Assembly (NCBI GenBank): GCA_011389735.1
Contig: JAABTS010000050.1
Span: forward strand, 1-35,618
Direction of reading: 5' to 3'
DNA from: Desulfobacteraceae bacterium
Lineage (GTDB): Bacteria > Desulfobacterota > Desulfobacteria > Desulfobacterales > JAABTS01
DNA: 35,618 nt
In this document: positions 1-15,888 of the stretch, piece after piece
Layout of the letters: every line of letters starts with the position of its first letter
Numbering within the stretch: position 1 is the first letter of the stretch
Program-made: the position numbers and the translations under genes
The notes under the pieces: generated by a model
Told to the model about the DNA's origin: nothing
Database searches by the model: none
What the model saw: the letters and a program-made list of their open reading frames with translations, nothing else

Positions 1-60
1 TTGAATCTGACCGGGAAGACCATCCGGGTTTCCATAGGCTATTTTTTTACGCCCGGTCAG
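1..60. repeat. GC-rich hairpin: near-perfect 14-15 bp inverted repeat (TTGAATCTGACCGGG ... CCCGGTCAGTTCAA) around a ~35-nt loop, immediately left of the AT-rich island
   Basis: Read directly: 5' arm at 1-15 and its reverse complement at 52-65. Composition matches the GC-rich host DNA, not the AT-rich island that follows. The window starts here, so the element may be truncated. Confidence 0.4.
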
Positions 61-81
61 TTCAATCCTTATGGGTTATCC

Positions 82-131
82 TTGATATTTATTCTTGACG
101 TTTAACTTGATATTTATTCTTGACGTTTAAC
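82..131 (+). repeat. Perfect tandem direct repeat, 2 x 25 bp (TTGATATTTATTCTTGACGTTTAAC), each carrying a TTGACG -35-like hexamer
   Basis: Copy 1 at 82-106 and copy 2 at 107-131 are identical. They lie directly upstream of the higB start at 155. Confidence 0.9.
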
Positions 132-148
132 GTTAAGCGTTATATGCT
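120..148 (+). promoter_or_regulatory. Putative sigma70-type higBA promoter: -35 TTGACG (120-125), 17-nt spacer, -10 TATGCT (143-148); 10-bp perfect palindrome TTAACGTTAA (127-136) in the spacer as candidate HigA/HigB operator
   Basis: Hexamers and spacing read from sequence. The palindrome sitting in the spacer is typical of autoregulated TA operons. The ATG at 155 is only 6 nt past the -10, so the mRNA would be leaderless or nearly so. Confidence 0.45.
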
Positions 149-154
149 TAAAAC

Positions 155-436
155 ATGATTCAGTCATTCAACGATAAAGAAACAGAAAAAATTTATAATA
201 GAATCTATTCTAAAAAATTTCCTGATGAGATTCAAAGAATAGCTTTTCGAAAATTAAGAATGATAAACCGGGCTCAAAATATAAATGACATTCGGGTTCC
301 ACCTTCAAACAGATTGGAGAAATTAAAAGGAAAACGAGAAGGTAAATACTCGATTCGAATAAACGATCAATGGAGAATATGCTTTGAGTGGCATGGAAAC
401 GATGCTTTCAAGGTTGAAATCATTGATTATCATTAG
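155..436 (+). CDS. higB: HigB-like toxin (RelE/ParE superfamily, 'plasmid maintenance system killer')
   Basis: 93 aa; ends ...RINDQWRICFEWHGNDAFKVEIIDYH, characteristic of HigB-family toxins. Followed after 8 nt by an HTH antitoxin, the canonical higB-higA order. Confidence 0.85.
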   Translation: MIQSFNDKETEKIYNRIYSKKFPDEIQRIAFRKLRMINRAQNINDIRVPPSNRLEKLKGKREGKYSIRINDQWRICFEWHGNDAFKVEIIDYH

Positions 437-444
437 GAGCAAAT

Positions 445-750
445 ATGAAAATGAATAAAATGGAACCATTACATCCGGGCGAGGTGCTTCGGGAAGAATT
501 TCTTAAGCCATTGGGATTAAGTCAGAACAAACTTGCCATGGATCTTCATGTACCAGCAAGAAGAATAAATGAAATTGTTTTAGGTCGAAGAGGAATTACC
601 GCAGATACCGCATTACGATTTGCCAGATATTTTAAAATGTCCCCTCAATTTTGGCTTGGACTTCAAATGGATTTTGAACTTGATTTAGCAAAAGATGCTA
701 ATGAAAAAAAAATAGAAGAAGAAATTCAACCAATGGCAGCGATAATCTGA
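445..750 (+). CDS. higA: HigA antitoxin (XRE-family HTH, addiction-module antidote protein)
   Basis: 101 aa; N-terminus MEPLHPGEVLREEFLKPLGLSQNKLAMDLHVPARRINEIVLGRRGITADTALRFARYF is the typical HigA HTH fold. Confidence 0.85.
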   Translation: MKMNKMEPLHPGEVLREEFLKPLGLSQNKLAMDLHVPARRINEIVLGRRGITADTALRFARYFKMSPQFWLGLQMDFELDLAKDANEKKIEEEIQPMAAII

Positions 751-882
751 AAGAGAGTATCTCAAATTTATTTACAACGTCTCCTTTGATAAGGCCGTGC
801 CATGCATTCTCGGATATCATTTTTGGGCTAATTTAAAATCAAATAATTAATCTTTTTTATCAATCATAGGAAGGGGCCGGCA

Positions 883-1206
883 ATGAAGGAATCTATTGTT
901 ATACAAATAGAAACATCTTTATTGGCCAAATTGACTGTGTTATCCCAAAAAGAAAAAATGAATTTATCGGGTTTGGTTTCTCTGGCTGTTCAACATTACA
1001 TCGACACACAAGAAAGCCCGAAAGCTGAGACAATTGATTTAAAAAATATCGAAATTCCTCCGGAAGGCATTTCACTTGAGAGGCTTCATATCAGATTAGT
1101 TGAAGAAGCCCTAAGATTAACTGATCATAACCAAACTTCAGCGGCAAATCTTTTAGGGATTACAAGGGCGAAATTCCGAATTTTGCAAAAAAAAATTGGA
1201 TCATAG
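883..1206 (+). CDS. Small DNA-binding protein: N-terminal ribbon-helix-helix-like segment plus C-terminal Fis-type HTH
   Basis: 107 aa; C-terminus EEALRLTDHNQTSAANLLGITRAKFRILQKKIG matches the Fis/NtrC-C-terminal HTH pattern. The N-terminus (IVIQIETSLLAKLTVL...MNLSGLVSLAVQHYI) looks like a beta-strand followed by two helices, i.e. RHH-like. RBS GGAAGGGG lies 8 nt upstream of the ATG. Confidence 0.6.
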   Translation: MKESIVIQIETSLLAKLTVLSQKEKMNLSGLVSLAVQHYIDTQESPKAETIDLKNIEIPPEGISLERLHIRLVEEALRLTDHNQTSAANLLGITRAKFRILQKKIGS

Positions 1207-1235
1207 TTGAAAAACATAATTGTGAAATTATCACC

Positions 1236-1844
1236 ATGGGTAAATTTACGCCTCCTACAATCACAACTGTTCGAGAACATATAGCATGGTCCTATGCGAA
1301 CTTAGCTCGCGCTGATGCAGCTCTAAAAGATGGCGCCAATAAATATAGAGTAGTTCATCATATGATTCGCGGCAAGCTTTTTAAGGGACTCAAGGAACAA
1401 ACAATGAGAATATCATCGCTATACCGTGATGAACGTTTAAAGATGACCGTTCCCCAGGCATGCTATTATTGTGGAAGTTACAAAAATCTATCGGTCGACC
1501 ATCTTATTCCAAAAATCAAAGGCGGCGCCGATGATTCTGATAACCTCATTTGGGCCTGTAGACCCTGTAATAGTTCTAAGCGTGACAAAGATATGCTGTC
1601 ATGGATGTTTAACAAAAAAATGTTTCCATCAATTTTATTATTGCGAAGATTTATCAAAATTGTAGCGCGATATTGTGATGAAAACGAATTACTGGATGAA
1701 AATTTGGAGGTCGCTTTAAAAAAATCACTGCCATTTGATTTGGCTATTTTACCATATAATTATCCACCATTAGAAAAAATGCGCCTTTGGATTCTTCCCG
1801 AATTCCAGGAATCCAAGGAATCTCAAGCACACAATCAATTTTAA
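1236..1844 (+). CDS. HNH endonuclease-domain protein (202 aa) with N- and C-terminal extensions
   Basis: Complete HNH zinc-finger motif: CYYCG-x7-LSVDHLIPKIKGG-x5-DNLIWACRPCNSSKRDKD (CxxC...H...N...H...CxxC). Starts 30 nt after the HTH gene, same strand. Confidence 0.85.
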   Translation: MGKFTPPTITTVREHIAWSYANLARADAALKDGANKYRVVHHMIRGKLFKGLKEQTMRISSLYRDERLKMTVPQACYYCGSYKNLSVDHLIPKIKGGADDSDNLIWACRPCNSSKRDKDMLSWMFNKKMFPSILLLRRFIKIVARYCDENELLDENLEVALKKSLPFDLAILPYNYPPLEKMRLWILPEFQESKESQAHNQF

Positions 1845-1852
1845 CCAATAAA

Positions 1853-1880
1853 TTCATCGGATGAAACCGATGGTTTTATT
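1853..1880 (+). terminator. Possible weak intrinsic terminator after the HNH gene (stem CATCGG/CCGATG followed by TTTTATT)
   Basis: 6-bp perfect stem with a 6-nt loop, directly followed by a T-rich run. The stem is short, so confidence is low. Confidence 0.3.
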
Positions 1881-1928
1881 ATTATCTGATGATTTCTATC
1901 GTTATTTTTTAGAAGGAGGCGACAATCA

Positions 1929-2048
1929 ATGAGCAAAAAAATGCTTAAAATGCGGATATCCGGGGCGGGTTTTTGTTATAAAGAACATAAATCAGTTATC
2001 ATCTTTATAACTGTGTGTACATTAATCTTTTTCCAAATCAGGTTTTAA
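1929..2048 (+). CDS. Possible small hydrophobic peptide (39 aa, MSKKMLKMRISGAGFCYKEHKSVIIFITVCTLIFFQIRF), not in the supplied ORF track
   Basis: Strong SD (GAAGGAGG) 9 nt upstream of the ATG at 1929. The C-terminal ~20 residues form a plausible TM helix. The 3' end overlaps the convergent zinc-ribbon gene. Confidence 0.2.
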   Translation: MSKKMLKMRISGAGFCYKEHKSVIIFITVCTLIFFQIRF

Positions 2049-3074
2049 CTCAATTGCTTTATCAATGATCATTTCTTCATCTATATAATCATCCATTTCA
2101 TCAGCATCATGTGACTTTTCAATATCGGCTACTAAAGCGTTATATGCTTTTCGAAATAATGCTGGAGACATCTTTTTTATATTTCGATCTTCCCTCAAAT
2201 CCTCTGATATACATTCGCTATACAAATCAAACAATTCTAACTCATTCGATTTTTCAACCTTTTTTTGTTTCTCATATTCAGAAATTGTTTCTTCCGCTTG
2301 CCCTGCTGTCAATCCTTTGGGTATTTGAATATTGAAGAATCTATAAAAATCTTTTTGTCCTTTTAAAGCGGGGCGATTATTTAGCTTTTTAACATTTTTT
2401 TCATCGGACAATAAATCTTGCGCCTTATATTTTGCCGTTGTACTATTTAACCCCTTCAATGATACTTTAAAAAACTTGAGGATATCCTCAAAGCGTTCAA
2501 TTTCATCGCAATTATGTAAGCCTATGAGATCTGACAACTGACCCTTTGTCATTTTCTGATCTGCTTTAATTCCAAGTTTTCTAGCATATTTAATCTGGCG
2601 GTCGGTAGAATTATCAAAAAACCAATGTGGGGCAATATCCGGCGTCTCATCAATCTCTTTCCATTTCTTTTTTAGATATTCTAAATCCTCATTGTATTTT
2701 TTTTCTTCTGATGTCTCCTCATCAAGATGCCTTCCTTTAGCCGATTTGGCTTGTAACGATTTTGGCTGGGTTTGGATTCCATTCTTCCCTTTAAATTCTT
2801 CTATGTTTTTTTCATCTTCACTGCTTTTTGATTTTATTTTCTGCTTAACCAAAATAACGCTTATTATTAAAAATATTATTCCAGCAAAAGGACTCACTTT
2901 TAATGAAATAGTAATGACACAAAATAACATAATAATAAAACCAACTATTATAATAATAATTGGTATTTCTTTTTCTTCTGGGAAATTATTGCCACACTTT
3001 GGGCACTTGTTTTTCGTTTTATAAACAACATCAGAGTTAGAAATTTCATTCTTACATTTTTTACAAATTGGCAT
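2022..3074 (-). CDS. Zinc-ribbon membrane protein (N-terminal CxxC-x17-CxxC, two TM helices, Lys/Glu-rich cytoplasmic domain with an internally duplicated motif); function unknown
   Basis: The ORF extends to 3155, but MPICKKCKNE...CPKCGNNF starts at the ATG at 3074, which is the more plausible start. The hydrophobic stretch IPIIIIIVGFIIMLFCVITISLKVSPFAGIIFLIISVILV is TM-like. The internal repeat RQIKYARKLGIKADQKMTKGQLSDLIG / FFNIQIPKGLTAGQAEETISEY is present. AT-rich like the rest of the island. Confidence 0.6.
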   Translation of the reverse strand: MPICKKCKNEISNSDVVYKTKNKCPKCGNNFPEEKEIPIIIIIVGFIIMLFCVITISLKVSPFAGIIFLIISVILVKQKIKSKSSEDEKNIEEFKGKNGIQTQPKSLQAKSAKGRHLDEETSEEKKYNEDLEYLKKKWKEIDETPDIAPHWFFDNSTDRQIKYARKLGIKADQKMTKGQLSDLIGLHNCDEIERFEDILKFFKVSLKGLNSTTAKYKAQDLLSDEKNVKKLNNRPALKGQKDFYRFFNIQIPKGLTAGQAEETISEYEKQKKVEKSNELELFDLYSECISEDLREDRNIKKMSPALFRKAYNALVADIEKSHDADEMDDYIDEEMIIDKAIELKPDLEKD

Positions 3075-3361
3075 TTTAGTTACCATCTTTTTGAGAATAA
3101 CAGTGAACCATATAGCAAAAAAATATATTCGCTTTGGCTTTTCCAGTAAACCCAATCCAAAAGAATAAAAAAAAGATCCTTATTACATATCATGTCATAT
3201 TTCCCCTTTTTTTTATCCAATATCTTTATCAATGTCAATTGCCGATACAAGTTTTTCAGCGATCTGGGATTGATCCGTGAGTTTTTACGTACGCGAGGTG
3301 ATACCGGGAAGGGTGCGACGTCCGGAGGAATTCCGGAAACATGATACTTAATTATTGACAC

Positions 3362-6300
3362 TCAATTAGGCTTCCCCCGAAGCAACCGCGCAATCCCGTC
3401 ATTCCCTTTCTTTTCAGCCCACATCAGGGCGGTCATTCCATTGTTGTCCAGCAGGTTCACGTTCGCCCCGCGCGCCAGCAGCACCTTGACCACATCCACG
3501 CGCCCTTTGGACGCCGCTATCATCAGGGCGGAGTAGCCGTCCCTGTCCACGGCGTCGATCATCGCGCCCTGATCCAGCAGAAAATCGACCACGTTCGGAT
3601 TGTTATGCACCGCCGCCGCCATCAGCGGAGTCGCTTTTTCAGGCGTCCTGGCGTTCACATCCCTGCCCGAACGGAGCAGTTCGCCGAGTTGTTCGATGTT
3701 TCCGTTTTTAATCGCCAGGTAAAAATCATTCTTGCGGCTTTTATGGATGGTTCGCAGGGTCGAAGGCGCAATCGGAGCGGAATTCTTGATCCGTTCCGCG
3801 TAATGCGGATCGACTCCCGCCGCCTGAACCGGAACCACGGAGATCGACTTGATTTCCTTCGCCAATCGATCGATCCTGGACAATGTTTCCTCGGAAAAGG
3901 AGACCATTGTTTGAACCGGCCCCGAAGACCTTTCTTCCCGATCATCTTCGCGAGTTTCAGAACCTCGCGCCTGATAAAACCGCATGAACTGATCCACCCC
4001 GGCCGACAGCGCTCCCCGTATCGACTCCAGCCCGTCCTGAAACGCCGACAACTGGGCCACCACATGCGTCACAGGATTGCTCTCGTCCATCCCCCTCAAC
4101 ATCTGGTTCTTTTGGAACGTCTTCTTTATCTCTTCCCATCGCTCCCGCTGCGTATCCGTCATCCAGCCCGTCAACTCCAAAAACTTGAGCATATTGGCCT
4201 CCGCCCCCGTGGTCAGGGTCTGGGCCTCGCTTTCGTAATGGGACAACAGCAGAGTTTTCAGCTCCGAGTCGTTCATGATCGGAACCAGCTTTTCCGTCAG
4301 CCGGTTCATGTTCCGGTAAGATCCCTGAAGCTTGAACGGAGGCTCCGTTCTGAATTCGTCGGCCATGCCCGCGGAACGGATATATTCCTTATTCACCTTC
4401 AGAATCACCTCCTGAACCGTGATCATCTTTTTCATGACCGACACCATCTCATCGATTTCTTCGCCTGAATAATTCCCCTCAAACTCGACCTCCTCACGGT
4501 CGCCGGTCTTCGCAATCCGGATAATCGAATACACGTCCGCCTGGCTTCGGCTCGACATTTTCCCCAGCACCGGATTGGAGGTCAGCGCGTTTTCAAGGTA
4601 GCTCATTTCGAAATCTTCCCGCGTATCCCCGATAATATCCCCCAGATTGTAAGTATCCGCCCGGTTCGCCAGCATATCCGGTATCTTGAACTTCTCCCCG
4701 CTCTCCGTGTAAGGATTTCCGGCCATCACCACGACCACTTTCTTGCCCCGAAGGTCATACGTCCGGCTTTTGCCTTTATAAACACCTTCAATTTTGCGCT
4801 GGGCGTCGCACAAAGAGATAAATTTTTGTAAGAATTCGGGGTTCAAATGCTGAATATCATCCAGATACAGCATGACATTGTCGCCCATCTCGAGGCAGAG
4901 GTTCAATTTTTGGATTTCTTCCCGGGCTGCGGCGTTGGATGCTTCCTTGGGATCGAGAGACGTGACCGTGTGTCCGATAGCCGGGCCGTTGATTTTCATG
5001 AAGATAACGCCGAGCCGGTTGGCCAGATATTCCATCAGGGTGGTTTTGCCGTATCCGGGAGGCGAAATCAGCAGGAGCATGCCCATGAGGTCGGTGCGTT
5101 TTCCTTCGCCCGCCACGCCGATCTGTTTCGCCAGATTGGCGCCGATCAGCGGCAGATACACTTTGTTTATCAGACGGTTCCGGACAAACGACGTCAAAAT
5201 CCGTGGCTTGAATTCATTCAGCCTCAAACCTTCCCTCATCTCATCGATCAGTTTCCGTTTCAAATCCTGATAACGGTTGTACAGAGGCAAGATCTCCGAT
5301 TCGAACCGGGCGGTTTTGTCCATAAACCGGTAATAATTCAAATGATAGCGCCCGTTTTGAATCACACGATGATCTCCCAGCATCCCGTCTGATTCACGGG
5401 TCATATCCACATCGGCCATATCTTTTTGAACCACTTCCGGCGGATCGAACACAAGAACCGAGGCTTCATCCAGATAATCCAACAGTTCTTCTCTTCCAAG
5501 AGACAGGATATAAGCCTCCATCCAGTCCCGGATCATTTCGAAAACGCTGAGCGGCGAACCGGCCAGTTTTTCCCGCGCGGTTTTGAATTTTTGCAGATAC
5601 AGGCCGGATTTCAAACTCACGGCGAACCCTTCGGACAGCTCGAACGCTTCCTTGCTGACCGAAAATCGCTCCGCCCCGGACGACAACTCCAAAAACAAAT
5701 ATGTCGCCGCATCCGGCGCCGATTCCACCGAAAACAGCCCGGTTCGACGAACGAATTCGTATATCCGGTCGGAAATCTCCGCAATATAACGGGCCTGTTC
5801 CCCCCTGGACGGAAAAATCCCGGATATCATCCCGAACGAACGCAGCTTTTCCAGCATGAGCGATTTTTCAGCCTGTTCTTCATCGGAAAATCCGAGCAGC
5901 ATGAACAATCCGGCCAGCGCCCGAACCCGCGGATGAAATCGCAACAGACCGATTTTGACGTGGATATCGGCCAGCGCCTGCACGATCTTTGCGCAGTCAT
6001 GGTCGTGAACGCCCTTGGAATAGCCTTCGGCATATCTCGGGCCCATGAACCGGCGAACCATGCCCTGAAGCTCTTCTTCGGACGCCTCCGCGAATTCGCT
6101 GATCGCCGAATCTCCACGGCTTTCAGCGTCTTTCAGCATTCGCAACGCCAGAAATTCGCCCCGGTAAACGTCCTCGTTCTCCGACGGAACCTCCATACCC
6201 CACACGCTCCGGGTCTTTATGAACTCAGGATGATCTATCGTTTCGAAAAAATCGGTTCCGGCCAGATGGAAAACCTGCTCGCCGTCCCGCTGTACGATCG

Positions 6301-8914
6301 TAAGATCCAGCGGCTGAACGTTCACGGAAAACCGGTAATCACCGAACCGGATAATATCGGCGCCGTCCTCGAACAATTCTTTCCGGTCTTTGAGCCGCCG
6401 GACGGTGTCTTCCCGCATCGTTTTCAGACGGGATTGAATATCGTCCGCCTTGACCGTATCGTCAAGCTCCCGAAGCTGAACGATAATGTCCCGGATTTTC
6501 TCGATCATCAGATCCGATGCGAAATACCCGTTGATTTCATTGATGTCCGTCATCCCGTCCACGCGGTTCCGGACGCCTTTCAAAATCCGCTCCGCCGCGC
6601 TCATCAACGCGTTCGCACGCTTGTTCCGGGCTTCCACAAGGGACAGCTTCCGGGTTTCAAACGCATGATACAACGCTTCCCGCTTTTCAGACAATTGGAC
6701 TATAAAATCGTCGAACTCGACAAACGCCCCCTCCAGTTCTTCAAGCTGTATCATTAATTTGGTCAGATACTCATCGCATTTATCAGGCGTGTCGCTGATA
6801 TCCAGATAGTTGATCACGCTCTGGTTCAACAGCTTGATCCGGGCGTTGAACCGCTCCACGCCCTCAACGCTTGCAAGGCTTTTACGCTTGTTTTTAAGTT
6901 CCGCCTTGACTTTGTTGATATCGGAATAGATGGCGGAAATATCGTCGATAATTCGGGTGGTTTGAGTGGAATCCTCGATCTTGAGGTTACTGACGATATC
7001 GATCAGCATTTCCAGATCCCCCGAAACAGCGCCCACGTCTTCCTGAATCCGGTCAGCGTCCGCCACACGGTCGCATTCCACGATCCGCCCCCGTGTCTCA
7101 ACGACTCGATTTACATATGGCTTCAGAGCCTCATCGCTCAATAAAAATTCCACACAGGCCGAAGAAACCCGGCCGGTCGCATCCTTGACTCCAGCCTCCA
7201 GAGACTCCACAGCATCCAAATCCACATACCGGAGATCCTTCAAAGATATGATTTCACCCCGAATATTCCGCAATTGGGAAAGCCGTTCCACAAAATGATC
7301 GATACGGTTCATCACGCCGAGATCGACCGACTTGAGAATTTCGCCGGCCCGATCGGAAACCTCCCGAACCCGGCTCTCAGTACCCTTTTTCAGCCGGACG
7401 ACCTTTTCGAACGCATCAATCGCCCCGCTCGCCGTACGCTTGATTTCGAGAACCGTTTCCTTGATATTGAACGCTTCGGGCCGTTCGATCCAGAAATAGG
7501 CGTCGGCGATATCCGTGGATTTTTTGACTATGTCATGGTACAGCCCCGAATAGGTGTCCTCCTTGTTCAAAAGCCTCAACAATTCGTTGCATTCGGCCAT
7601 GCATCGCACAATGTCCTTGTTGCCGACTTTGTAAAGAAAGGCGTCTTTTTTATCCGCCCCAGGAAGCAGGCCCGTAATAAAAGGCGTTTGCATGATCTGA
7701 ACCACATGATGCTTCGTCGGTTCGGGATCGCTGCGCAAAAGCAGCATTTCCCCGCTGTCAAAAATGGAAAAACCGCTGCACACGATCGGCGTATCCACTT
7801 TTTGATCGATAATATTATAGTGCAGCAAAATGTGATCCCCGGTCTCCCGGTTATAAAATACATAAAGAAAATCTTCGCCGTTGGACGACGCCGCCCGGCG
7901 CTCGAAACGCATATCGGCCAGGCCGCTTTCGAATTGCTTGAGTTCGCCGGTCTGAAGATAATATCCGTTGGAAAACATGAGCCCCTGGCTGTCCGGGAGA
8001 AGCACGCATGCGTTTTCGATCTCATCGACACGGCTCACCGCCTGAGTTTTTTCATTGAAGATATAATATCGAAACGCATTTTCCTGGTAAGGCCGGATTC
8101 GCACAAGAATCATGTTACCGACAAAAGCGTAGTAAATTTCAGCGTCATCGAGAGTCTGATCCTTGTTCTCGACGGCTTCCGAATACACCCCGTATCCGTC
8201 GGCCGTGTTGTCCTCCACCTTGAAAGTGATATCCCCGCCGACAGCCTCCACAAACAACCGGTCGTCCAGGGAAATATGAGGATGCACGCCTGCCCGGTGC
8301 TGGTCCCTGGTCGTCCGGGTCCAGGCGAATTCGTGCTGAGCCGGAAACTTGAATTCATGGTCGCTCCGGTTGTCCAGATACACCGGCCCCGATTCCTGCA
8401 TGGCCCATTTGAACGTTTTGATATCAACGACGGATTTGCCGATATTGAAAACCATGAAAAGATGGGGCCCGATGATCGAAAATTTCGCGAACCGCGTTTC
8501 CTTGTAATATTTATACAAGTCCTTGAAATCGGCCTCGAACCTTCCCGAATCCAGAATATCGACCGGCTGTTCGCGAAACGAGCCGTCACGGTATTCGTAA
8601 ACCGCAAACACATCGGATATCCCCGTCTCGGATTTCAGCCCCATACGCACGTTATACCCGAAAATAAACAGATTCCGCCCGATTGAAACCATGTCACGGG
8701 GGATGCAATTGTTTTGGGTTGAAATCCGTTCGGTCGACAAAATTGTGGTTTCGATAGAGCCGAAGATATCCTTGCGGGACTGATTGAGTTCACCCAGGCT
8801 GGATTGCAGGGCGTTCCCCTGAGTCAGCAGCCGGTTGCGGATAATCTCGTAAGCGCCGCCGTCCAGAGCAATCCTTGATTCATCCTGTGCTTTCACATCT
8901 TCATTGCCGGCCAT
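3362..8914 (-). CDS. Giant multidomain protein (~1850 aa): N-terminal ~1250 aa of unknown fold, MoxR/AAA_5-like AAA+ ATPase core, ~270-aa linker, C-terminal 3-4 ankyrin repeats
   Basis: Walker A LLISPPGYGKTTL; Walker B/MoxR-like MLYLDDIQHLNPEFLQKF; sensor-1 VVVVMAGNPYTE; arginine-finger region KIPDMLANRA (nt ~4600-5060). Ankyrin repeats PLMAAAVHNNPNVVDFLL / SALMIAASKGRVDVVKVLLARGANVN / TALMWAEKKGNDGIARLL (nt ~3362-3775). A coiled-coil-rich segment spans aa ~560-900. The track ORF begins with TTG at 8920. The ATG at 8914 has a GGGAG SD 6 nt upstream and is preferred. Confidence 0.85.
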   Translation of the reverse strand: MAGNEDVKAQDESRIALDGGAYEIIRNRLLTQGNALQSSLGELNQSRKDIFGSIETTILSTERISTQNNCIPRDMVSIGRNLFIFGYNVRMGLKSETGISDVFAVYEYRDGSFREQPVDILDSGRFEADFKDLYKYYKETRFAKFSIIGPHLFMVFNIGKSVVDIKTFKWAMQESGPVYLDNRSDHEFKFPAQHEFAWTRTTRDQHRAGVHPHISLDDRLFVEAVGGDITFKVEDNTADGYGVYSEAVENKDQTLDDAEIYYAFVGNMILVRIRPYQENAFRYYIFNEKTQAVSRVDEIENACVLLPDSQGLMFSNGYYLQTGELKQFESGLADMRFERRAASSNGEDFLYVFYNRETGDHILLHYNIIDQKVDTPIVCSGFSIFDSGEMLLLRSDPEPTKHHVVQIMQTPFITGLLPGADKKDAFLYKVGNKDIVRCMAECNELLRLLNKEDTYSGLYHDIVKKSTDIADAYFWIERPEAFNIKETVLEIKRTASGAIDAFEKVVRLKKGTESRVREVSDRAGEILKSVDLGVMNRIDHFVERLSQLRNIRGEIISLKDLRYVDLDAVESLEAGVKDATGRVSSACVEFLLSDEALKPYVNRVVETRGRIVECDRVADADRIQEDVGAVSGDLEMLIDIVSNLKIEDSTQTTRIIDDISAIYSDINKVKAELKNKRKSLASVEGVERFNARIKLLNQSVINYLDISDTPDKCDEYLTKLMIQLEELEGAFVEFDDFIVQLSEKREALYHAFETRKLSLVEARNKRANALMSAAERILKGVRNRVDGMTDINEINGYFASDLMIEKIRDIIVQLRELDDTVKADDIQSRLKTMREDTVRRLKDRKELFEDGADIIRFGDYRFSVNVQPLDLTIVQRDGEQVFHLAGTDFFETIDHPEFIKTRSVWGMEVPSENEDVYRGEFLALRMLKDAESRGDSAISEFAEASEEELQGMVRRFMGPRYAEGYSKGVHDHDCAKIVQALADIHVKIGLLRFHPRVRALAGLFMLLGFSDEEQAEKSLMLEKLRSFGMISGIFPSRGEQARYIAEISDRIYEFVRRTGLFSVESAPDAATYLFLELSSGAERFSVSKEAFELSEGFAVSLKSGLYLQKFKTAREKLAGSPLSVFEMIRDWMEAYILSLGREELLDYLDEASVLVFDPPEVVQKDMADVDMTRESDGMLGDHRVIQNGRYHLNYYRFMDKTARFESEILPLYNRYQDLKRKLIDEMREGLRLNEFKPRILTSFVRNRLINKVYLPLIGANLAKQIGVAGEGKRTDLMGMLLLISPPGYGKTTLMEYLANRLGVIFMKINGPAIGHTVTSLDPKEASNAAAREEIQKLNLCLEMGDNVMLYLDDIQHLNPEFLQKFISLCDAQRKIEGVYKGKSRTYDLRGKKVVVVMAGNPYTESGEKFKIPDMLANRADTYNLGDIIGDTREDFEMSYLENALTSNPVLGKMSSRSQADVYSIIRIAKTGDREEVEFEGNYSGEEIDEMVSVMKKMITVQEVILKVNKEYIRSAGMADEFRTEPPFKLQGSYRNMNRLTEKLVPIMNDSELKTLLLSHYESEAQTLTTGAEANMLKFLELTGWMTDTQRERWEEIKKTFQKNQMLRGMDESNPVTHVVAQLSAFQDGLESIRGALSAGVDQFMRFYQARGSETREDDREERSSGPVQTMVSFSEETLSRIDRLAKEIKSISVVPVQAAGVDPHYAERIKNSAPIAPSTLRTIHKSRKNDFYLAIKNGNIEQLGELLRSGRDVNARTPEKATPLMAAAVHNNPNVVDFLLDQGAMIDAVDRDGYSALMIAASKGRVDVVKVLLARGANVNLLDNNGMTALMWAEKKGNDGIARLLRGKPN

Positions 8915-8960
8915 ACCCAACTCCCTGACGGTTCAACGTCCGCATGCTTTCGAAAACAAG

Positions 8961-11096
8961 TTATTCTTTTTTTCCTCGATCTTCCAGGTTCAAGGAGCCC
9001 AGGATTTTGTTACCCAGCCCGGATCGTTCAGCCATGGAAATGAGACCGTATAGATCGCTCCGTGCGTTGTCGCAATCCGTCTGCGATACAAGGCGGCTCA
9101 ATGCGGCCGATACGGTGAGATCTTTGAACTGTTCGGCGCTGACGCCGAACTGGCTGAAAAACTGGGTAAGCTGGGATTTGAAAAATTCCGGATCGCCGTT
9201 GAAAAAGGTGTCCTTGACGTTTTTGAGTACGTCGCTGCCTTCGATAAGACGATCGATCGCCTTGCCGCCCGATACGGCGTTGACCACGCGATCGAAAAAC
9301 ATGGACTCCCCTCCGACGATATCCACCCTGGCGGATTTAAGGGCCGCGCCGAGGGTTTCCGCCTGATAGGAGGCGATTTCCTTGCGAATATTGATTTCGG
9401 CGATACGGATGTCTTTTTCCATGGCCAGACGGATTTTATATTCTTCGTGTTCACGGCCCACGGCGTCGAGCAATTTCATGGCGTTGGCCTTGCTTTCGAT
9501 GCCTTTAGCCTCGGCCTGAAACAACATGGACTGGGTTTTGGCTTCGGATGCGCCTTTTAATTCAATGCCTTTGGCGTCGGCTTCATTTTTCAGCTCGATC
9601 ACTTTAGCTTCGGCCGCGCCTTTTTTCTCGATCAACAGCGTCTGAGCCTCGTTAATTTTCACCTGAGCCAATCCGGCTGCGGCCTTTTCGGCGATTTCGC
9701 CTTCGGCCAGCAGCTTTTTGGCGTTGGCGTCTTTTTCCGCGGCAGCCTGCCTGGCCTCCGCCTCGATCACTACCTGCTCGGCTTTCATTCCGGCGGCGCC
9801 TTTCGACGCTTCAGCCGCTTTAAGCACACGATTTCTTTCTTCTTCCGCCTTGAACTCGGCGACTTTCCGGGACGCTTCAGCCGCTTTGACATCGATCAGC
9901 AAAGATTCTTCAGCCTCTTTTTCAGCCTTGGTGATAGCCACTTTTTTCTCGCGATCCGCCTGAGCGTAGGCTTCGGTGTCCTTGATTCGCTCCTGTTCCT
10001 CGATCACAGTTTTTTCAACCATTACCCGCTCACGTATTACATTCTGGATCGCTTTTTTTTCGACTTCAAGGGCTTTTTCCTTTTCAATCTGAGCTAACGA
10101 CACCAGCCGTTCCCGTTCGGTCGCCTCGATCATCCGATCTTTTTCCACCCGCTCGTTCTCGATGGCCTCGGTGCGTTCTTTGTTCTTGCGGGCCACGACC
10201 ACCTGCCGCAGTTTGTTTTCTTCCGCCACGGCAAGCTGTTCTTCGGTGGCGATCCGGGCGGATTCGGCCTTATATTTCTCTTCTTCCTGAATTTTCCGGG
10301 TTTCAGCTTCTTCCCGGGCTTTGACGGATTCGACCTCGCGCTTTTTCTGATTTTCGGTCTGGGACAACTGCCGGTTCAATTCCAGAACGGTTTCCCGGGC
10401 TTCGACATCCTGTTTGGTGATCGTCTTTTCTTTTTCCCGGTCGATCTGGTTGGCGAGTATTTTTTGAGTCGCCGTAAGCTCCGTGATCTTTTTAATCCCC
10501 TGGGAATCCAGAATATTATCAGCCTTTAGATCTTCCAGTTGTGTTTGTTCCAGAAAATCGATTGCTGCGTCATCCAGGATAAACCCATTCAAATCCGTGC
10601 CGATGATCTTCAGCATTTCCTCTTTGAATTTTTCCCGGGAATTATACAAATCCACGAAATCGAATTGTTTTCCGACGGTTTTCAGAGCTTCGGAAAATTT
10701 GGCTTCGAACAGATCCTGAAGCGCCGCCTGATGAGACGCTCGTTCGCAACCAATAGACTGGGCCACCTTGAGTACGTCTTCGCCCGTTTTGTTCACCCGG
10801 ACGAAAAAGGCCACCTTGATGTCGGCCCGAAGATTGTCCTGGCAAATCAGGCCCTCGATTCCCTGCCGGTCGATCGTGACCTTTTTAACGGAAATATCGA
10901 TAAATTCCATGCGATGAAGAATCGGAATCACCATGATTCCTGAAAACGTGACACTGGTTCCGCCGACGCCGTTCCGAACCAACGCATGTCCCTGTTCCAC
11001 TTTTTTGTAAAATCTCGCCAGCATGGTAAGAAGACCGACAAGGATGATAAATCCGCCGATAAGGACAACCCCGATCGATAAGCCCAGAATTTCCAT
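8961..11096 (-). CDS. Flotillin-like SPFH/band-7 protein (YqiK family)
   Basis: 711 aa; N-terminal TM helix, SPFH core (...VTIDRQGIEGLICQDNLRADIKVAFFVRV...), a very long Glu/Ala/Lys-rich coiled coil, and a C-terminal flotillin tail. Strong SD CAGGAGGGG. Sits 13 nt downstream of an NfeD-like gene. Confidence 0.9.
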   Translation of the reverse strand: MEILGLSIGVVLIGGFIILVGLLTMLARFYKKVEQGHALVRNGVGGTSVTFSGIMVIPILHRMEFIDISVKKVTIDRQGIEGLICQDNLRADIKVAFFVRVNKTGEDVLKVAQSIGCERASHQAALQDLFEAKFSEALKTVGKQFDFVDLYNSREKFKEEMLKIIGTDLNGFILDDAAIDFLEQTQLEDLKADNILDSQGIKKITELTATQKILANQIDREKEKTITKQDVEARETVLELNRQLSQTENQKKREVESVKAREEAETRKIQEEEKYKAESARIATEEQLAVAEENKLRQVVVARKNKERTEAIENERVEKDRMIEATERERLVSLAQIEKEKALEVEKKAIQNVIRERVMVEKTVIEEQERIKDTEAYAQADREKKVAITKAEKEAEESLLIDVKAAEASRKVAEFKAEEERNRVLKAAEASKGAAGMKAEQVVIEAEARQAAAEKDANAKKLLAEGEIAEKAAAGLAQVKINEAQTLLIEKKGAAEAKVIELKNEADAKGIELKGASEAKTQSMLFQAEAKGIESKANAMKLLDAVGREHEEYKIRLAMEKDIRIAEINIRKEIASYQAETLGAALKSARVDIVGGESMFFDRVVNAVSGGKAIDRLIEGSDVLKNVKDTFFNGDPEFFKSQLTQFFSQFGVSAEQFKDLTVSAALSRLVSQTDCDNARSDLYGLISMAERSGLGNKILGSLNLEDRGKKE

Positions 11097-11109
11097 GATA
11101 CCCCTCCTG

Positions 11110-11727
11110 TTATTCTTCGTTATACTTTTCTACAAAATAGACGCCGTTTTCCCTGTCCTCGTCATAAACCAGAGCTTTGTCGCCCTTTATAAGAACGCCG
11201 CCGCCCGTTGTCCGCGCATGGATCGTAATCGGGGCCCCTCCGGTCAAAATTTCAACCTGCCCGAATGATGAATTGACCTGGCTGGTGACCACCGTCCCTA
11301 CTTGATACATGACCGAGCTTTCCTTTCGCTGATCGTTTTGTTTGAACATTTTTGCCAGAGGTTTCATGATAAAAGCGGTGATAAAAAACGAAACAATGAA
11401 ATTGGGTATCAGAAACGCCAGGCCGAGGAGAATTGAATGGGAAGGATTTAAAAAATAATTCAGAATCAATGAAAACCACCAGCAGCTCATGACCATTAAA
11501 GTGACTACGAACATGATCGGAACTTCGCCGAGACTCAAAAATTCCGTAATCGATGATAAAAAGCCTCCTGAACCGTCCACATCGATATCCGGAGTAATAT
11601 CCGCGTCTAAAAATTCGAGATCTATTCCTCCTAGAATGACCGCAAGCCAGTACAACATTGTAAGGCCGAAGATGACTGTAAAAGGAAGGTTGAGAGGCAT
11701 TACCGTCTGTTGCAGGAATTCAAACAT
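11110..11727 (-). CDS. NfeD/YqiJ-like membrane protein (multi-TM N-terminus, C-terminal OB-fold beta domain); usual partner of SPFH proteins
   Basis: 205 aa; 3-4 hydrophobic helices then GTVVTSQVNSSFGQVEILTGGAPITIHARTTGGGVLIKGDKALVYDEDRENGVYFVEK, typical of the NfeD short-form OB domain. Confidence 0.8.
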   Translation of the reverse strand: MFEFLQQTVMPLNLPFTVIFGLTMLYWLAVILGGIDLEFLDADITPDIDVDGSGGFLSSITEFLSLGEVPIMFVVTLMVMSCWWFSLILNYFLNPSHSILLGLAFLIPNFIVSFFITAFIMKPLAKMFKQNDQRKESSVMYQVGTVVTSQVNSSFGQVEILTGGAPITIHARTTGGGVLIKGDKALVYDEDRENGVYFVEKYNEE

Positions 11728-12104
11728 AAAACTTTTCCTTTCACGATATAAGGAGGGGATGTTGTCAACGCCGATTCAAAAGAACCGGCCGACTATAAAC
11801 TTTCAGATATTCCATCGCAGTGGGTTTTCGAACGGATATACACGCCCTGGATAAACCATCCGGAAATTTTTTCATACTCCAGTTCGTACTCTTGCTCAAG
11901 ATTTTCAGAACACCCTTGCAATTTTGAACACGAGCAAGCATGAAACGGCCGGTCTTAAAACCAACCTCCTCAAAACCAATATCTCGCCCTCTTACAAATT
12001 TCTGAAATATAACATCCGAAAGCCTATAGCATGACAGAACGTCGATTGCAAATATCGGGTTATTATCGCCCTCAGAAAATAAAATTTCACCAGGTCGCCG
12101 TTTC

Positions 12105-12140
12105 GGAGGATACGAATCGTATGATCCCAGGGCCGCCGCC
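12105..12140 (+). repeat. Copy 1 of a conserved ~36-nt intergenic element (GGAGGATACGAATCGTATGATCCCAGGGCCGCCGCC), reverse orientation relative to copies 2 and 3
   Basis: Its reverse complement GGCGGCGGCCCTGGGATCATACGATTCGTATCCTCC aligns almost base-for-base with 21067-21110 and 24329-24367. Confidence 0.8.
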
Positions 12141-12371
12141 TTGTGAAATTGAATTCGGGCCTGGTTCTAACTTCGGCCACGACCGCAGGTTGAATAATCT
12201 CACCGCAGAGACGCAGAGTTCGCAAACGTTAAATAAATTAAATGTTTTACGTTCTTTGCCCCTTTGCGGTGGAAAAATATTGGCCGGAAATGGAATCAAG
12301 CCCTTGAATTTCTGAAAACCCGTATCGTTTTTCAACATCCTTCCGGAACCTTGATTTCGAAACGCAACAGC

Positions 12372-13124
12372 TTATTGTTTCACAACGACACGGGTGTCGC
12401 AGATACGGTCATGAAGCGTCCTTTTCTGATCGTCAAACGCCGCAATCAGGTATCCTATGCAAAGTATGAAATAGCTGATATATTCAGCTAAATGCCGACC
12501 GAAAGCCAGTTTAAAACCAACCGGGGTTCCGTCCGAACGAACGATTCTCAGGCGGCACGCCATTTTTCCGGGAGTCGCTCCGTGTTTTCCAACAAACCAG
12601 GTTGAATAACCCGCTGCAATGACCATTTGCAATAAAAACGTCACTGCTGGAATAATGAGCGCAAGATCGCTTTCATAGGCTTCCAGAGTTTTCATCGCCA
12701 TCGATCCGGACACCCATGATAAAGAAGCATCGACTATCAGCAAAATGATCCCGTCGATGAACTTGGCGGCGAATCTGATCAGGAATCCGCCGTATTCCAT
12801 GATTCCCGGGAGCGGCGCTCCTTCGCGGACTTTCTGGATAAACAAGGGCTTGCAAGAACCGCATACCCAAAGTTCCTTGAAAGGGATCATTTCCGATTCC
12901 GGAAACAGGTTCCCGCATTCCGCGCAGGTTCGCATATCCGATTCTTCCGCCTCGACTTCGGGTTCAATGGTTTCGACATAATCGCCGAATTTGATCCAAT
13001 GGTCAAGGCCCGACCGCCATACCAGGGTGTCTGATTGAATTGTTCCGTCGGCTACAAATTGGTTGAATTCGTCTTCGGTCAACGGTCCGTATTGTTTCCC
13101 GGATAAGGCGTAATACCAGTTCAT
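12372..13124 (-). CDS. RDD-family membrane protein with N-terminal GYF-like (DUF4339-type) domain and a CxxC...CxxC zinc ribbon
   Basis: 250 aa; WYYALSGKQYGPLTEDEF...TLVWRSGLDHW (GYF-like); CAECG...CGSC; the RDD core is hydrophobic with the conserved R...D...D pattern in the C-terminal half. SD AAGGAG. Confidence 0.75.
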   Translation of the reverse strand: MNWYYALSGKQYGPLTEDEFNQFVADGTIQSDTLVWRSGLDHWIKFGDYVETIEPEVEAEESDMRTCAECGNLFPESEMIPFKELWVCGSCKPLFIQKVREGAPLPGIMEYGGFLIRFAAKFIDGIILLIVDASLSWVSGSMAMKTLEAYESDLALIIPAVTFLLQMVIAAGYSTWFVGKHGATPGKMACRLRIVRSDGTPVGFKLAFGRHLAEYISYFILCIGYLIAAFDDQKRTLHDRICDTRVVVKQ

Positions 13125-13226: not shown

Positions 13227-14324
13227 TCATTGACTTCCAGACAGCCATTCCCGTTCAAAAGTGCGCCATTCGTCCGGATCTGTCGTCCAGCCGGCGTAAA
13301 CAGCGATTCCGAACATATCCAAACGGGACGGCTCGATTGATTGAAGCCCCATTTGAATTCCGTAAATCGCCGATTCTACATTTTCGGCTTCGGGGTGAAA
13401 TCCCTTGCTTTTATTTTCATAGGAAGGGATTCCCATGAACAACAGCACATTCGAATCCAGTACGGTTAAAAGCCGACTTGTCTGACGGCTCACGAGGGAG
13501 GAATATATCCAGTCGTAAGGAATGGCCGTATCATACATCATGACGGCGGCCTGATCGACGATTTCGGCGATTTCCCGGTAATAATCTAGTTTCCAGAAAC
13601 CGCCTGTTTTCATGAATGCTCTTGCGAGTACGTTGGCGCCGGCGAACGGCTCCGGCTTCTCGCAAGACACGGAGAGAATTTTATCGGTTTTGGAGGTTAT
13701 CCGTCGGGCTCGTTTCAATAGATCGATAAAATCCCGGTTCCCGGTGTAAATCGGTTCGATGTTGAAATGAACTCCGTCGAACCCGAGATCTAAAAAAATA
13801 CGGGCGGTGTTTACAATTTCACGGCGTATCCCCATATCGGACAGATTCAGAGGGCCCCCGCCTGCTTTTTCGATCTGACCGATCCATGCATGCATATTGA
13901 TCCGGCTCGTTCGGCTTTTTATCCGGGAAACGAGTTGAGCTGCAAAGGGATATTTTTCAAGTTCGATTTCGCCTTGAGCGTTCAACGGCCCTACATGAAA
14001 ATAAATGTCCGTAATTTTAAACCGTTCAGCCGTTTCGATCAATTGATTGTAGACGGCGTACTCGTGGGATTTACCTACCCAGTCATGTCTCGCCCACATG
14101 GCGTTTCTTCCTTTGGAGCCGAATTTGACCGAAGGCCCGGATCTGTAAATATAATAAGTGTAGGACGCGCCGCTGAAAACCAGCGCAATCAGAAAAATAA
14201 ATCCCGTCAGGAGGGCTTTGACCCAAGATTTCAAGATTCCGTCACCTGCTTTTTTTTTAACCTCCGCTGCTGTAAAAGCATCTGTTTTACCGGCCCACGC
14301 CGCCGCCCGGGCCTGGAAAACCAT
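13227..14324 (-). CDS. Membrane-anchored putative glycoside-hydrolase-like TIM-barrel protein (GH18-like, catalytic motif degenerate)
   Basis: N-terminal signal anchor (LLTGFIFLIALVFSGASY). LGFDGVHFNIEP resembles the GH18 DGxDxDWE motif but reads D-G-V-H-F-N-I-E. The track ORF begins with TTG at 14330; the ATG at 14324 is preferred. Confidence 0.45.
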   Translation of the reverse strand: MVFQARAAAWAGKTDAFTAAEVKKKAGDGILKSWVKALLTGFIFLIALVFSGASYTYYIYRSGPSVKFGSKGRNAMWARHDWVGKSHEYAVYNQLIETAERFKITDIYFHVGPLNAQGEIELEKYPFAAQLVSRIKSRTSRINMHAWIGQIEKAGGGPLNLSDMGIRREIVNTARIFLDLGFDGVHFNIEPIYTGNRDFIDLLKRARRITSKTDKILSVSCEKPEPFAGANVLARAFMKTGGFWKLDYYREIAEIVDQAAVMMYDTAIPYDWIYSSLVSRQTSRLLTVLDSNVLLFMGIPSYENKSKGFHPEAENVESAIYGIQMGLQSIEPSRLDMFGIAVYAGWTTDPDEWRTFEREWLSGSQ

Positions 14325-14400
14325 TATCAAGTCAAGCAGTTCGAGATGAATTTAAAATCAACGTCGCCGGAAAATCAGCTATTGTCGAAGTCTCCGAAAA

Positions 14401-15888
14401 TTACAATGAAGACAGCAAGTCACAGAACAATCTTACTCCAAACCCCGTGCCGCCGGGATTGACGTATGATCCGGCCTTTGAAACATATGCAGGGCCGGCG
14501 ATATCGAGATGCGCCCATTTGGCGTCCTTGACGAATTCGGACAGAAAAAGAGCCGCAATGATAGCTCCCCCCCACCCGGTGTCGCCTACATTTTTGATAT
14601 CCGCCACATCGCTTTTGAGTTTTTCCCTGTAATCGTCCACGATGGGAAGCCGCCAGCAACGTTCGAAAGTCTTACGCCCCGACCGGACCAACGCCTCCGC
14701 AAGCTCGTCATCCGAACTGAAAACACCGGCGACATTTTCTCCCAGGGCCGCCAGGCATGCGCCCGTCAACGTCGCGATGTCGATCACGATATCGGGCTTA
14801 TAAGTCTTGACTACGTAAGCCAGGGCGTCGATGAGAATCAGCCTGCCCTCAGCGTCGGTGTTTAAAATTTCCACGGTTTTTCCGCTGTAGGCGCGGATAA
14901 TGTCCCCTGGACGGGCGGCGTTTCCGGAGGGCATGTTTTCCACGAGAGGAATCACGCCGATCACCTGCACGTCAGGTTTCAACCGGGCGGTCGTAATCAG
15001 CGTGGCGGCGACGGCGGCTGCGCCGGCCATGTCGATTTTCATGTTCGACGACGACCCTCCGGGTTTCAGGTTAATGCCGCCGGAATCAAAAGTGACGCCT
15101 TTTCCTACAAACGCAATAGTCTGTTTCGGCGTCTCGGGCGAGTATGATATAACAGCCATCCCTGGTTTGCTCAGGCTACCGGCCGCCACGGCCAGGATAG
15201 CATTGAATCCGCCTTTTTTCAAATCCGCCGAATTCATCACGGTTACATCGAGTTCTTCCTTTCTACAGGCTTGAGCTATTTGTTCGATGAACTGCTCGGG
15301 ACGTTTGTCATTGGGCGGCGTGGAAACCCAGTCCCTGGCCATGATGGTTCCTTCACAAACGGTCTCGACCTTTTCGATCAGCGACCGGTATTTTTTCACA
15401 ATCGTGTTGTTGGATATCAGATCGATTTTGGAAACAGGCGCGTCTTTTTTCTCGCTCTTATACACATCAAATATATGATTGCCGAGAATCGCCCCTTCCG
15501 CCATCGCCGTGACCACGGATTCCGCGTCCGCTTCGACTCGCGAAAAAGCCGGAGCCATCAGCGCCGCATCCTTGATTTTTTTCTTGATACACAGTTTAAT
15601 CGCCCTCCCCGAAAATGACCGGAATGTATCCACATCAATTTTTTCAAACTTGCCGATCCCGAGAAGAATGATTCGTTCCGCATTTATTCCGGATGGATTG
15701 TAAAAAATGATGTCCTCATCCTTGCGGCCCTTGAAATCGTCATAGGCGGCGGCTTTCTTTATGATGGAAAGCACCCCCGGACGTGTATGGATATCTTTGT
15801 CTTCGCAAACAGGAATGACCAGCGTATCGATTCGTATCTTGTTAAAGTCGATGGATATAAGGTTAAGCACGACAGACTCCTTTTTCAT
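14401..15888 (-). CDS. pepA: Leucyl aminopeptidase, M17 family
   Basis: 495 aa; M17 signature NTDAEGRLILIDALAY, metal ligands (K...D...D...E), and the typical N-terminal domain. Confidence 0.95.
   Translation of the reverse strand: MKKESVVLNLISIDFNKIRIDTLVIPVCEDKDIHTRPGVLSIIKKAAAYDDFKGRKDEDIIFYNPSGINAERIILLGIGKFEKIDVDTFRSFSGRAIKLCIKKKIKDAALMAPAFSRVEADAESVVTAMAEGAILGNHIFDVYKSEKKDAPVSKIDLISNNTIVKKYRSLIEKVETVCEGTIMARDWVSTPPNDKRPEQFIEQIAQACRKEELDVTVMNSADLKKGGFNAILAVAAGSLSKPGMAVISYSPETPKQTIAFVGKGVTFDSGGINLKPGGSSSNMKIDMAGAAAVAATLITTARLKPDVQVIGVIPLVENMPSGNAARPGDIIRAYSGKTVEILNTDAEGRLILIDALAYVVKTYKPDIVIDIATLTGACLAALGENVAGVFSSDDELAEALVRSGRKTFERCWRLPIVDDYREKLKSDVADIKNVGDTGWGGAIIAALFLSEFVKDAKWAHLDIAGPAYVSKAGSYVNPGGTGFGVRLFCDLLSSL

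Follow-up and report, generated by a model that had tools for sequence, protein, structure and literature searches.

The closest described relatives of the locus examined here are operons that join the CesT/Tir-PspA dyad with three further genes, reported together with an 'abbreviated' form devoid of PspA (Ravi et al. 2024, mSystems, PMC11237479, section 19; preprint 2020). That description is purely computational; its prototype neighbourhood is that of ANH61663.1 from Dokdonia donghaensis (Table S3), some of the operons hold a phospholipase D (HKD) hydrolase, and a parallel with ESCRT-III/Vps4 is drawn. We analyzed a stretch of 35,618 nucleotides from a Desulfobacteraceae bacterium (assembly GCA_011389735.1, contig JAABTS010000050.1, positions 1 to 35,618 of the forward strand; hereafter, the window), in which three consecutive genes of the minus strand, between positions 3362 and 11727, encode a YqiJ-like membrane protein, a flotillin of the YqiK type and a giant ATPase with an AAA+ module and a tail of ankyrin repeats. 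We conclude that this triad very probably belongs to the published operon family and that, because the CesT/Tir-PspA dyad is absent from the window, it is the abbreviated, PspA-less form. A previous reading made from the sequence alone had considered the third gene not to be a described member of such a group and the whole an undescribed system; this claim had to be abandoned, since both the operon and its abbreviated form are already in PMC11237479. The gene association was thus described before by comparative genomics, and the variant with the ankyrin tail is not mentioned there. Literature searches with the terms DUF3686, PF12458 and 'DNA repair ATPase' plus flotillin found nothing, and the ATPase is not mentioned in Hinderhofer 2009 or in the 2026 paper on a P. 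aeruginosa SPFH protein.

Conservation and layout of the three-gene module

Gene neighbourhoods were compared in 80 loci from many phyla, sampled with one genome per species, by searching their six-frame open reading frames (ORFs) with the three proteins of the window; synteny was scored in those 61 loci where 3.5 kb or more of sequence precedes the homologue of the giant ATPase. We observed that an SPFH gene is located directly upstream of this homologue, on the same strand, in 58 of the 61 loci, and that a YqiJ-like gene is also detectable in 53. The sequence-only reading had allowed for the case that most homologues of the giant gene occur without adjacent SPFH or NfeD genes; the survey revealed the reverse. 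Loci with the conserved order come from at least eight phyla, the lineages represented being Desulfobacterota, Planctomycetota, Verrucomicrobiota, Bacteroidota, Clostridia, Lentisphaeria, Kiritimatiellota and Chitinispirillaceae. The complete Desulfonema ishimotonii genome has the triad in the same order, with products of 203, 701 and 1841 amino acids (aa), and this order is also kept in the most divergent members found, where identity in the beta-propeller of the giant protein falls to 30-31%. According to a crude clustering of the neighbouring genes, those of the triad are the only ones that are widely conserved, and the flanks vary freely. The three genes form one conserved module, and their linkage is not due to chance.

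In the window, the module consists of the minus-strand ORFs 11727..11110 (205 aa), 11096..8961 (711 aa) and 8920..3362 (1852 aa when read from a TTG codon). The close packing that had been noticed in the sequence, with gaps of 13 and 40 nt and strong Shine-Dalgarno elements, was confirmed. The junction between the first gene and the flotillin gene reads ...GAATAA-CAGGAGGGGTATC-ATG, that is, a 13-nt gap with an AGGAGG Shine-Dalgarno element, and the junction between the flotillin and the giant gene reads ...GAATAA-(30 nt)-CAGGGAG-TTGGGT-ATG. For the giant gene, the ATG at 8914 is more likely to be the start than the TTG at 8920, because the resulting product of 1850 aa is identical to the database protein P0001; the gap would then be 46 nt, instead of the 40 nt measured from the TTG. 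No terminator-like or promoter-like consensus was found in either junction, and a promoter and terminator scan across the operon region gave match counts equal to those of shuffled sequence. Judging from this layout, co-transcription of the three genes is plausible. The only sizeable non-coding stretch of the region lies 5' of the first gene (11728..12371, minus strand, 644 nt) and is likely to serve the operon as promoter or regulatory region. The single sigma-70-like match in it (12090-12062) is weak and does not exceed those of shuffled sequence, and an Rfam scan of the stretch gave no family match. Rfam and tRNA scans of the 35.6-kb window were empty, and megablast found nothing similar in E. 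coli genomes.

The published association with PspA was recovered in part of the sample. PspA_IM30 (E=2e-41) is present in the neighbourhood of 19 loci, all of them from Bacteroidota. In 17 of these 19, CesT_Tir_1 (PF22550, E=2e-56) followed by PspA stands directly upstream of the triad, and most of these pairs are accompanied by a divergent regulator of the XRE helix-turn-helix (HTH)/S24-like type. In one locus (L028), PspA is directly upstream of the triad and CesT was undetected, and in another (L016), PspA is found about 1 kb downstream of the giant gene on the opposite strand. The Bacteroidota loci reproduce the D. donghaensis entry of Table S3 (PMC11237479) gene for gene, including the divergent HTH and protease-like regulator. 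Additionally, in the Kiritimatiellota bacterium B12222 a divergent PspA/IM30 (E=2e-10) is encoded at L017:6682-7245, with a 9-nt overlap with the start of the YqiJ-like gene. Since the hidden Markov model (HMM) of PspA built from Bacteroidota missed this protein, the linkage to PspA outside Bacteroidota may be under-counted. Upstream ORFs of 148 aa and 224 aa without a Pfam match, at L027 and L062, could be further cases of PspA.

Small unrelated genes are placed between the flotillin and the giant gene in several Bacteroidota and Verrucomicrobiota, where the gap widens to 0.5-2.3 kb and the order remains unbroken. The neighbourhood annotation assigns these genes to PDDEXK_3 (L072:73-498, L030 and L026), to DUF559 endonuclease-like proteins (L018:809-1255, L032:9512-9955 and L036) and to biotin/lipoyl-like proteins (L059:9565-9909 and L067:9465-9905). 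In the most divergent triad examined (L084/L085, 11502-13823), genes for TelA (toxic anion resistance) and for a ClpX-like AAA+ protein lie just downstream on the opposite strand; this is a single case.

Architecture of the three proteins

The first gene (11110..11727, minus strand) encodes a YqiJ/YuaF-type, NfeD-like inner-membrane protein of 205 aa. A transmembrane (TM) scan identified three hydrophobic segments in it, followed by a small soluble C-terminal part that corresponds to a beta domain; the same scan assigned a single TM segment to the flotillin (aa 8-26) and none to the giant protein. In an hhalign comparison, the profile of the family could be aligned from end to end with E. coli YqiJ (probability 96.4%, E=1e-9), and the Pfam model YqiJ_N was matched by 14 of 46 syntenic relatives (best E=4e-8), and NfeD by two of the 46. 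Taken by itself, the sequence from the window matched YqiJ_N weakly (E=0.02), and a weak match to the soluble domain of B. subtilis YuaF, 2k14, was also obtained (E=0.065).

The second gene (8961..11096, minus strand) encodes a flotillin/YqiK-type SPFH protein of 711 aa, composed of the N-terminal TM segment, an SPFH domain at about aa 30-210, a long coiled coil rich in E, A and K, and a conserved C-terminal domain. Its family profile matched E. coli YqiK with a probability of 100% (E=1e-41, 30% identity over 389 columns), in an alignment that spans the SPFH domain and the coiled coil. With these profile matches, the labels YqiJ and YqiK, given at first from the sequence alone, are well founded. 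When aa 1-243 of the flotillin were scanned alone, Band_7/SPFH was detected (E=1e-13); the full-length protein and 26 of 32 full-length relatives had zero Pfam matches, presumably as a result of the score correction applied to the biased E/A/K-rich coiled coil, and automated annotation therefore likely leaves this gene as 'hypothetical'. Whole-protein scans of the first two gene products against Pfam, NCBIfam and PADLOC gave no matches; the Pfam Flot model was undetected in the flotillin, and a sequence search of the PDB with this protein found no match.

The third gene (3362..8920 from the TTG, minus strand, as are all the segments given below) encodes a giant cytoplasmic ATPase of roughly 200 kDa, with Pfam matches to DUF3686 (aa 38-476, E=7e-180), DUF7902 (aa 597-681, E=7e-26), AAA (aa 1282-1402) and ankyrin repeats (aa 1734-1826). 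AlphaFold2 models of aa 1-850 (model A) and aa 845-1852 (model B) were built on 37-sequence alignments and reached predicted local distance difference test (pLDDT) values of 83.8 and 82.3, respectively. In model A, a helix (aa 22-53) precedes an N-terminal beta-propeller that forms the DUF3686 core (aa 59-411, 7688..8746), and the propeller is followed by a long all-helical stalk or bundle (aa 434-849, 6374..7621) that includes DUF7902 and has helices of 20-58 residues. Model B starts with a middle region made of a small beta domain and a helical domain (aa 856-1231, 5228..6355), continues with the AAA+ module (aa ~1240-1560, 4241..5203) and a helical C-terminal region, and ends, after a low-confidence linker (aa ~1654-1729, pLDDT < 50), in the ankyrin repeats (aa ~1730-1850, 3371..3733). 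Profile and structure searches had been proposed for aa 1-1250 in particular; they identified the propeller and the helical stalk, with DUF3686 and DUF7902, and the middle region, aa 856-1231, had no Pfam or PDB match.

The Foldseek comparison of model A with the PDB retrieved beta-propellers, among them those of Sec12, Elp1, the clathrin terminal domain and IFT-A (E=1e-6 to 1e-4), with low TM-scores (0.07-0.17). Matches to IFT-A, to the Nup84 complex and to the terminal domain of the clathrin heavy chain bring to mind a structural coat, in which the propeller and the helical region would serve as a scaffold resembling a protocoatomer and, with the flotillin, bend the membrane or draw it into tubules, while the AAA+ module would only regulate oligomerisation; the family is also abundant in Bacteroidota and in bacteria of the Planctomycetes-Verrucomicrobia-Chlamydiae group. 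However, TM-scores in this range are very low and the propeller by itself explains the matches, the helical part is composed of long helices and not of an alpha-solenoid, and the family is also present in Clostridia and Desulfobacterota. We consider a coat function improbable.

Regarding the AAA+ module, all 34 family members tested match Pfam AAA, AAA_5, AAA_22 and RuvB_N about equally, and none of the 34 matches the MoxR model AAA_3. The fold in model B carries a beta-hairpin before beta-4. Walker A (GYGKTT, aa 1289-1294, 5039-5056), Walker B (LYLDD, aa 1351-1355, 4856-4870, with the form hhhhDD and not the usual hhhhDE), MAGNP (aa 1399-1403) and LANRAD (aa 1417-1422) were located within the module. 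The segment from MAGNP to LANRAD is one that we take to resemble the stretch between sensor 1 and the arginine finger in the MoxR group. K1292 of Walker A, D1354/D1355 of Walker B, N1402 and R1420 are invariant in the homologue alignments (25 and 34 sequences), and because these catalytic residues do not vary, the ATP site looks functional.

When the giant protein without its ankyrin tail was compared with the PDB in a profile search, only the Walker A region was aligned, to p97, VAT and RuvB; with the tail included, the sequence search of the PDB and two structure searches of model B were dominated by ankyrin matches. The Pfam scan revealed no effector domain (nuclease, TIR, pore-former or protease). 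The Pfam description of DUF3686 is 'ATPase involved in DNA repair', and NCBI calls the relatives 'DNA repair ATPase'. Read literally, these names would make the protein a DNA-repair ATPase, to whose function the adjacent flotillin is irrelevant; besides the names, it is the weak RuvB_N match at the P-loop, and nothing else, that points in this direction. The likeness to RuvB does not extend beyond the Walker A region, the Pfam, NCBIfam and PDB searches gave no domain of the DNA-binding, nuclease or helicase kind, no supporting paper was found for the name, and the gene context, with linkage to membrane-protein genes in 58 of 61 loci, is that of the membrane. A role in DNA repair was thus rejected as extremely improbable. 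Re-annotation is worthwhile, as the label 'DNA repair ATPase' carries no supporting evidence.

The family of the giant protein comprises more than 3,268 proteins, with homologues from different phyla at 55-62% identity; the best 120 homologues have 52-64% identity and include Planctomycetota, Verrucomicrobiota and Bacteroidota. Among 1.84 billion representatives, no more than 252 clusters (50% identity) were matched at E<=1e-30; those listed members that exceed 1,400 aa range from 1,496 to 2,036 aa, mostly ~1,600-1,900. Across phyla, identity is 46-62% and the architecture is nearly constant; as judged from these comparisons, the family appears to evolve slowly. Most members have a conserved helical element at the C-terminus (…VLxxQFxLMxxWMxP…), to which the relatives from Desulfococcaceae add TPR, and in the subclade of the window ankyrin repeats are found in place of this element; among the best 120 homologues, ankyrin domains are present in 10 and TPR in three. 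Found only in a small subclade, the ankyrin tail is not a defining part of the giant protein, and appears to be a swappable, lineage-specific adaptor.

Two loci showed interrupted genes. In a Rubripirellula metagenome-assembled genome (L040, 9908-15229), the giant gene is split in three ORFs (779, 78 and 915 aa), and at L015 (6957-9725) the flotillin gene is split in two (184 and 738 aa). Frameshifts, pseudogenes or assembly errors account for both cases.

Membrane stress as a proposed function and the alternatives

When the membership of the published operon family is combined with the idea of an ATPase that acts on flotillin or PspA assemblies, a module for membrane stress or membrane remodelling is the account that we favour, by a modest measure. 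It retains one half of the function proposed by the sequence-only reading, a stress or anti-phage machine, since membrane stress fits the presence of PspA and CesT/Tir in Bacteroidota and in one Kiritimatiellota. The flotillin and its NfeD partner would co-assemble at the inner membrane, on its cytoplasmic side, as an oligomeric ring or cage, as suggested by solved structures of SPFH proteins and SPFH-NfeD complexes. The giant protein, devoid of TM segments, would be recruited to this scaffold through its propeller and stalk, a step suggested by the strict gene linkage. By analogy with Vps4/ESCRT-III and FtsH/HflKC, ATP binding and hydrolysis at the AAA+ site would power the building, dismantling or remodelling of the flotillin scaffold; PspA (ESCRT-III-like) polymers, whether their genes stand beside the triad or elsewhere, may be a further target of the giant protein. 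The outcome, again by analogy, could be membrane maintenance or repair under envelope stress, and the variable C-terminal tail, ankyrin in this case, might dock a lineage-specific partner. Functional links between SPFH proteins and PspA, as well as SPFH cages, are cited in PMC10936438 and PMC13086221. Taken alone, the remodelling mechanism is a tentative proposal, drawn from analogy, that we hold with less than even confidence. The narrower claim that the giant protein is a dedicated ATP-driven remodeller of flotillin cages or PspA polymers, as a bacterial counterpart of Vps4/FtsH, is more speculative still and seems to us rather unlikely, although conceivable.

Several observations weigh against the membrane-stress account. 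Three loci, one of them from a close relative (L004, L020 and L033), have no SPFH gene within 7.6-10 kb upstream of the giant gene, and the PspA and CesT HMMs built from Bacteroidota gave no match in any frame of the 35.6-kb window. In the literature, we found no experimental study of any member of the giant ATPase family. According to a reading of the motifs, the loop after beta-2 in the AAA+ module has no aromatic residue, and a threading unfoldase mechanism is therefore doubtful. The DD of Walker B, where DE is usual, may indicate that hydrolysis is slow or regulated. Lastly, the Pfam and PDB matches do not seem to settle the AAA+ clade to which the giant protein belongs.

The main rival is membrane protein quality control, in which the cage would confine damaged or unfolded membrane proteins, and the giant protein would extract them, refold them or hand them over to proteases. 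The scaffold and PspA would not be the substrate, and the system would represent a protease-less analogue of HflKC-FtsH, a pair that the neighbouring SPFH and AAA+ proteins indeed parallel. In its classical-AAA-like Walker A region, the giant protein is similar to p97/VAT, and a beta-propeller and ankyrin or TPR tails are typical of client or adaptor binding. FloA-NfeD of S. aureus is also reported to stabilise unfolded proteins. However, the giant protein has neither a protease domain nor a TM anchor, no canonical aromatic pore-loop motif follows its beta-2 as far as the motifs can be read, and the recurrent linkage is with PspA and CesT/Tir and not with proteases or chaperones. We regard quality control as unlikely.

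The other half of the earlier proposal, an anti-phage machine in a defence neighbourhood, is addressed by the flanks of the operon. The operon abuts an AT-rich island at the contig end (window 1-3361), with a GC content of 0.32-0.37 compared with ~0.5 elsewhere. In this island, the family scan identified a HigB-like toxin (155-436), an HTH_3 antitoxin-like protein (445-750), a Fis-type HTH (883-1206) and an HNH endonuclease (1236-1844), and the ORF list adds a 377-aa protein on the minus strand (2022-3155) with Cys-x2-Cys pairs and one hydrophobic segment, for which the family scan gave no match. A function in phage defence or abortive infection would imply that the flotillin-anchored ATPase senses infection at the membrane and triggers a response; the adjacent HigBA and HNH genes, together with the PDDEXK_3 and DUF559 endonuclease-like genes that separate the flotillin gene from the giant gene in a few genomes, could be counted in its favour, and phage shock protein (PSP) systems were first seen as phage-induced. 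Nevertheless, PADLOC-DB v2.0.0 (dated 2023, with newer defence systems outside its coverage) matched the triad only through the ankyrin repeats and in three marginal P-loop matches (E>=0.003), and its sole match in the island was the HNH protein, weak and generic. When 140 flanking proteins from ~45 loci were compared with PADLOC, scattered single matches were obtained (mostly helicase, PLD-like and broad enzyme families), with no recurrent system, and the flanks are not conserved. The giant protein itself, with 46-62% identity and a near-constant architecture across phyla and no effector domain found, differs from fast-evolving, patchy defence genes.

A known defence system was accordingly rejected, as no core PADLOC match was found outside generic repeats and no recurrent defence genes were found in the flanks; the anti-phage explanation as a whole has, in our view, little chance of being correct. 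The AT-rich island was probably acquired horizontally; it does not belong to the operon, nor is it a recognised defence system. Apart from this, three flanking proteins in the sample match the PLD-type DrmC model of PADLOC (best E=1e-12), in agreement with the HKD remark in PMC11237479. On the other side of the operon, the window contains same-strand upstream genes for a GYF_2 and RDD membrane protein (12372-13124), a weakly GH18-like protein (13227-14330) and an M17 leucyl aminopeptidase (14401-15888), none of which is conserved beside the triad in other genomes.

The function of bacterial flotillins is still debated. Because an ATPase of 1,600-1,900 residues almost always follows one flotillin subfamily, with ~50% identity in at least eight phyla, and is joined by PspA in some lineages, it is the most obvious experimental handle on an energy-dependent flotillin/PSP machine for membrane maintenance. 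If the giant protein were a dedicated remodeller, flotillins would gain an energy-dependent cycle of assembly and disassembly for membrane repair, and the choice of lineage-specific targets would fall to the exchangeable tails (ankyrin, TPR or helical). As for the window, its three genes gain a correct functional context, and a suspected novel defence system is removed from the candidates.

Comparison with known systems

The sequence-only reading had described the giant protein as a MoxR-like AAA+ core combined with ankyrin repeats; the AAA and ankyrin assignments were retained and the relationship to MoxR was not. The likeness to the MoxR family consists of a weak match to AAA_5 (dynein/MoxR-related), but AAA_3 is unmatched, classical AAA and RuvB_N fit the protein just as well, and a gene for a vWA partner was found neither in the flanks nor among the conserved neighbours. 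A MoxR/vWA system was rejected for these reasons.

HflK/HflC-FtsH, in the literature cited for the analogy, resembles the triad in that an SPFH scaffold is coupled to an AAA+ ATPase of the inner membrane. However, the TM helices and the M41 protease domain of FtsH have no counterpart in the giant protein, and FtsH belongs to another AAA+ family with another architecture; HflKC, unlike the flotillin of the window, has no NfeD partner. The likeness to ESCRT-III/Vps4 lies in the linkage, in part of the family, of a gene for a PspA polymer with a gene for an AAA+ ATPase. In contrast to Vps4, to which it is not orthologous, the giant protein has no MIT domain, is about four times larger and contains a beta-propeller, and the window lacks PspA.

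Closer correspondence was observed with yqiJ-yqiK of E. coli and yuaF-floT of B. subtilis, where the first two genes are homologous to those of the window and have the same order. In E. coli, however, no ATPase gene follows yqiK, the next genes being sibD/ibsD, and the flotillin of the window is ~160 aa longer. The operon of PMC11237479 has the same three protein architectures in the same gene order as the window. It differs in that its full form includes the CesT/Tir-PspA dyad, which is absent from the 35.6 kb analyzed here, and in that the ATPases of the family usually end in a helical C-terminus, whereas that of the window has an ankyrin module unmentioned in that paper. The triad is neither a novel system nor a defence system; it is of a kind already described computationally, in a variant with an ankyrin tail.

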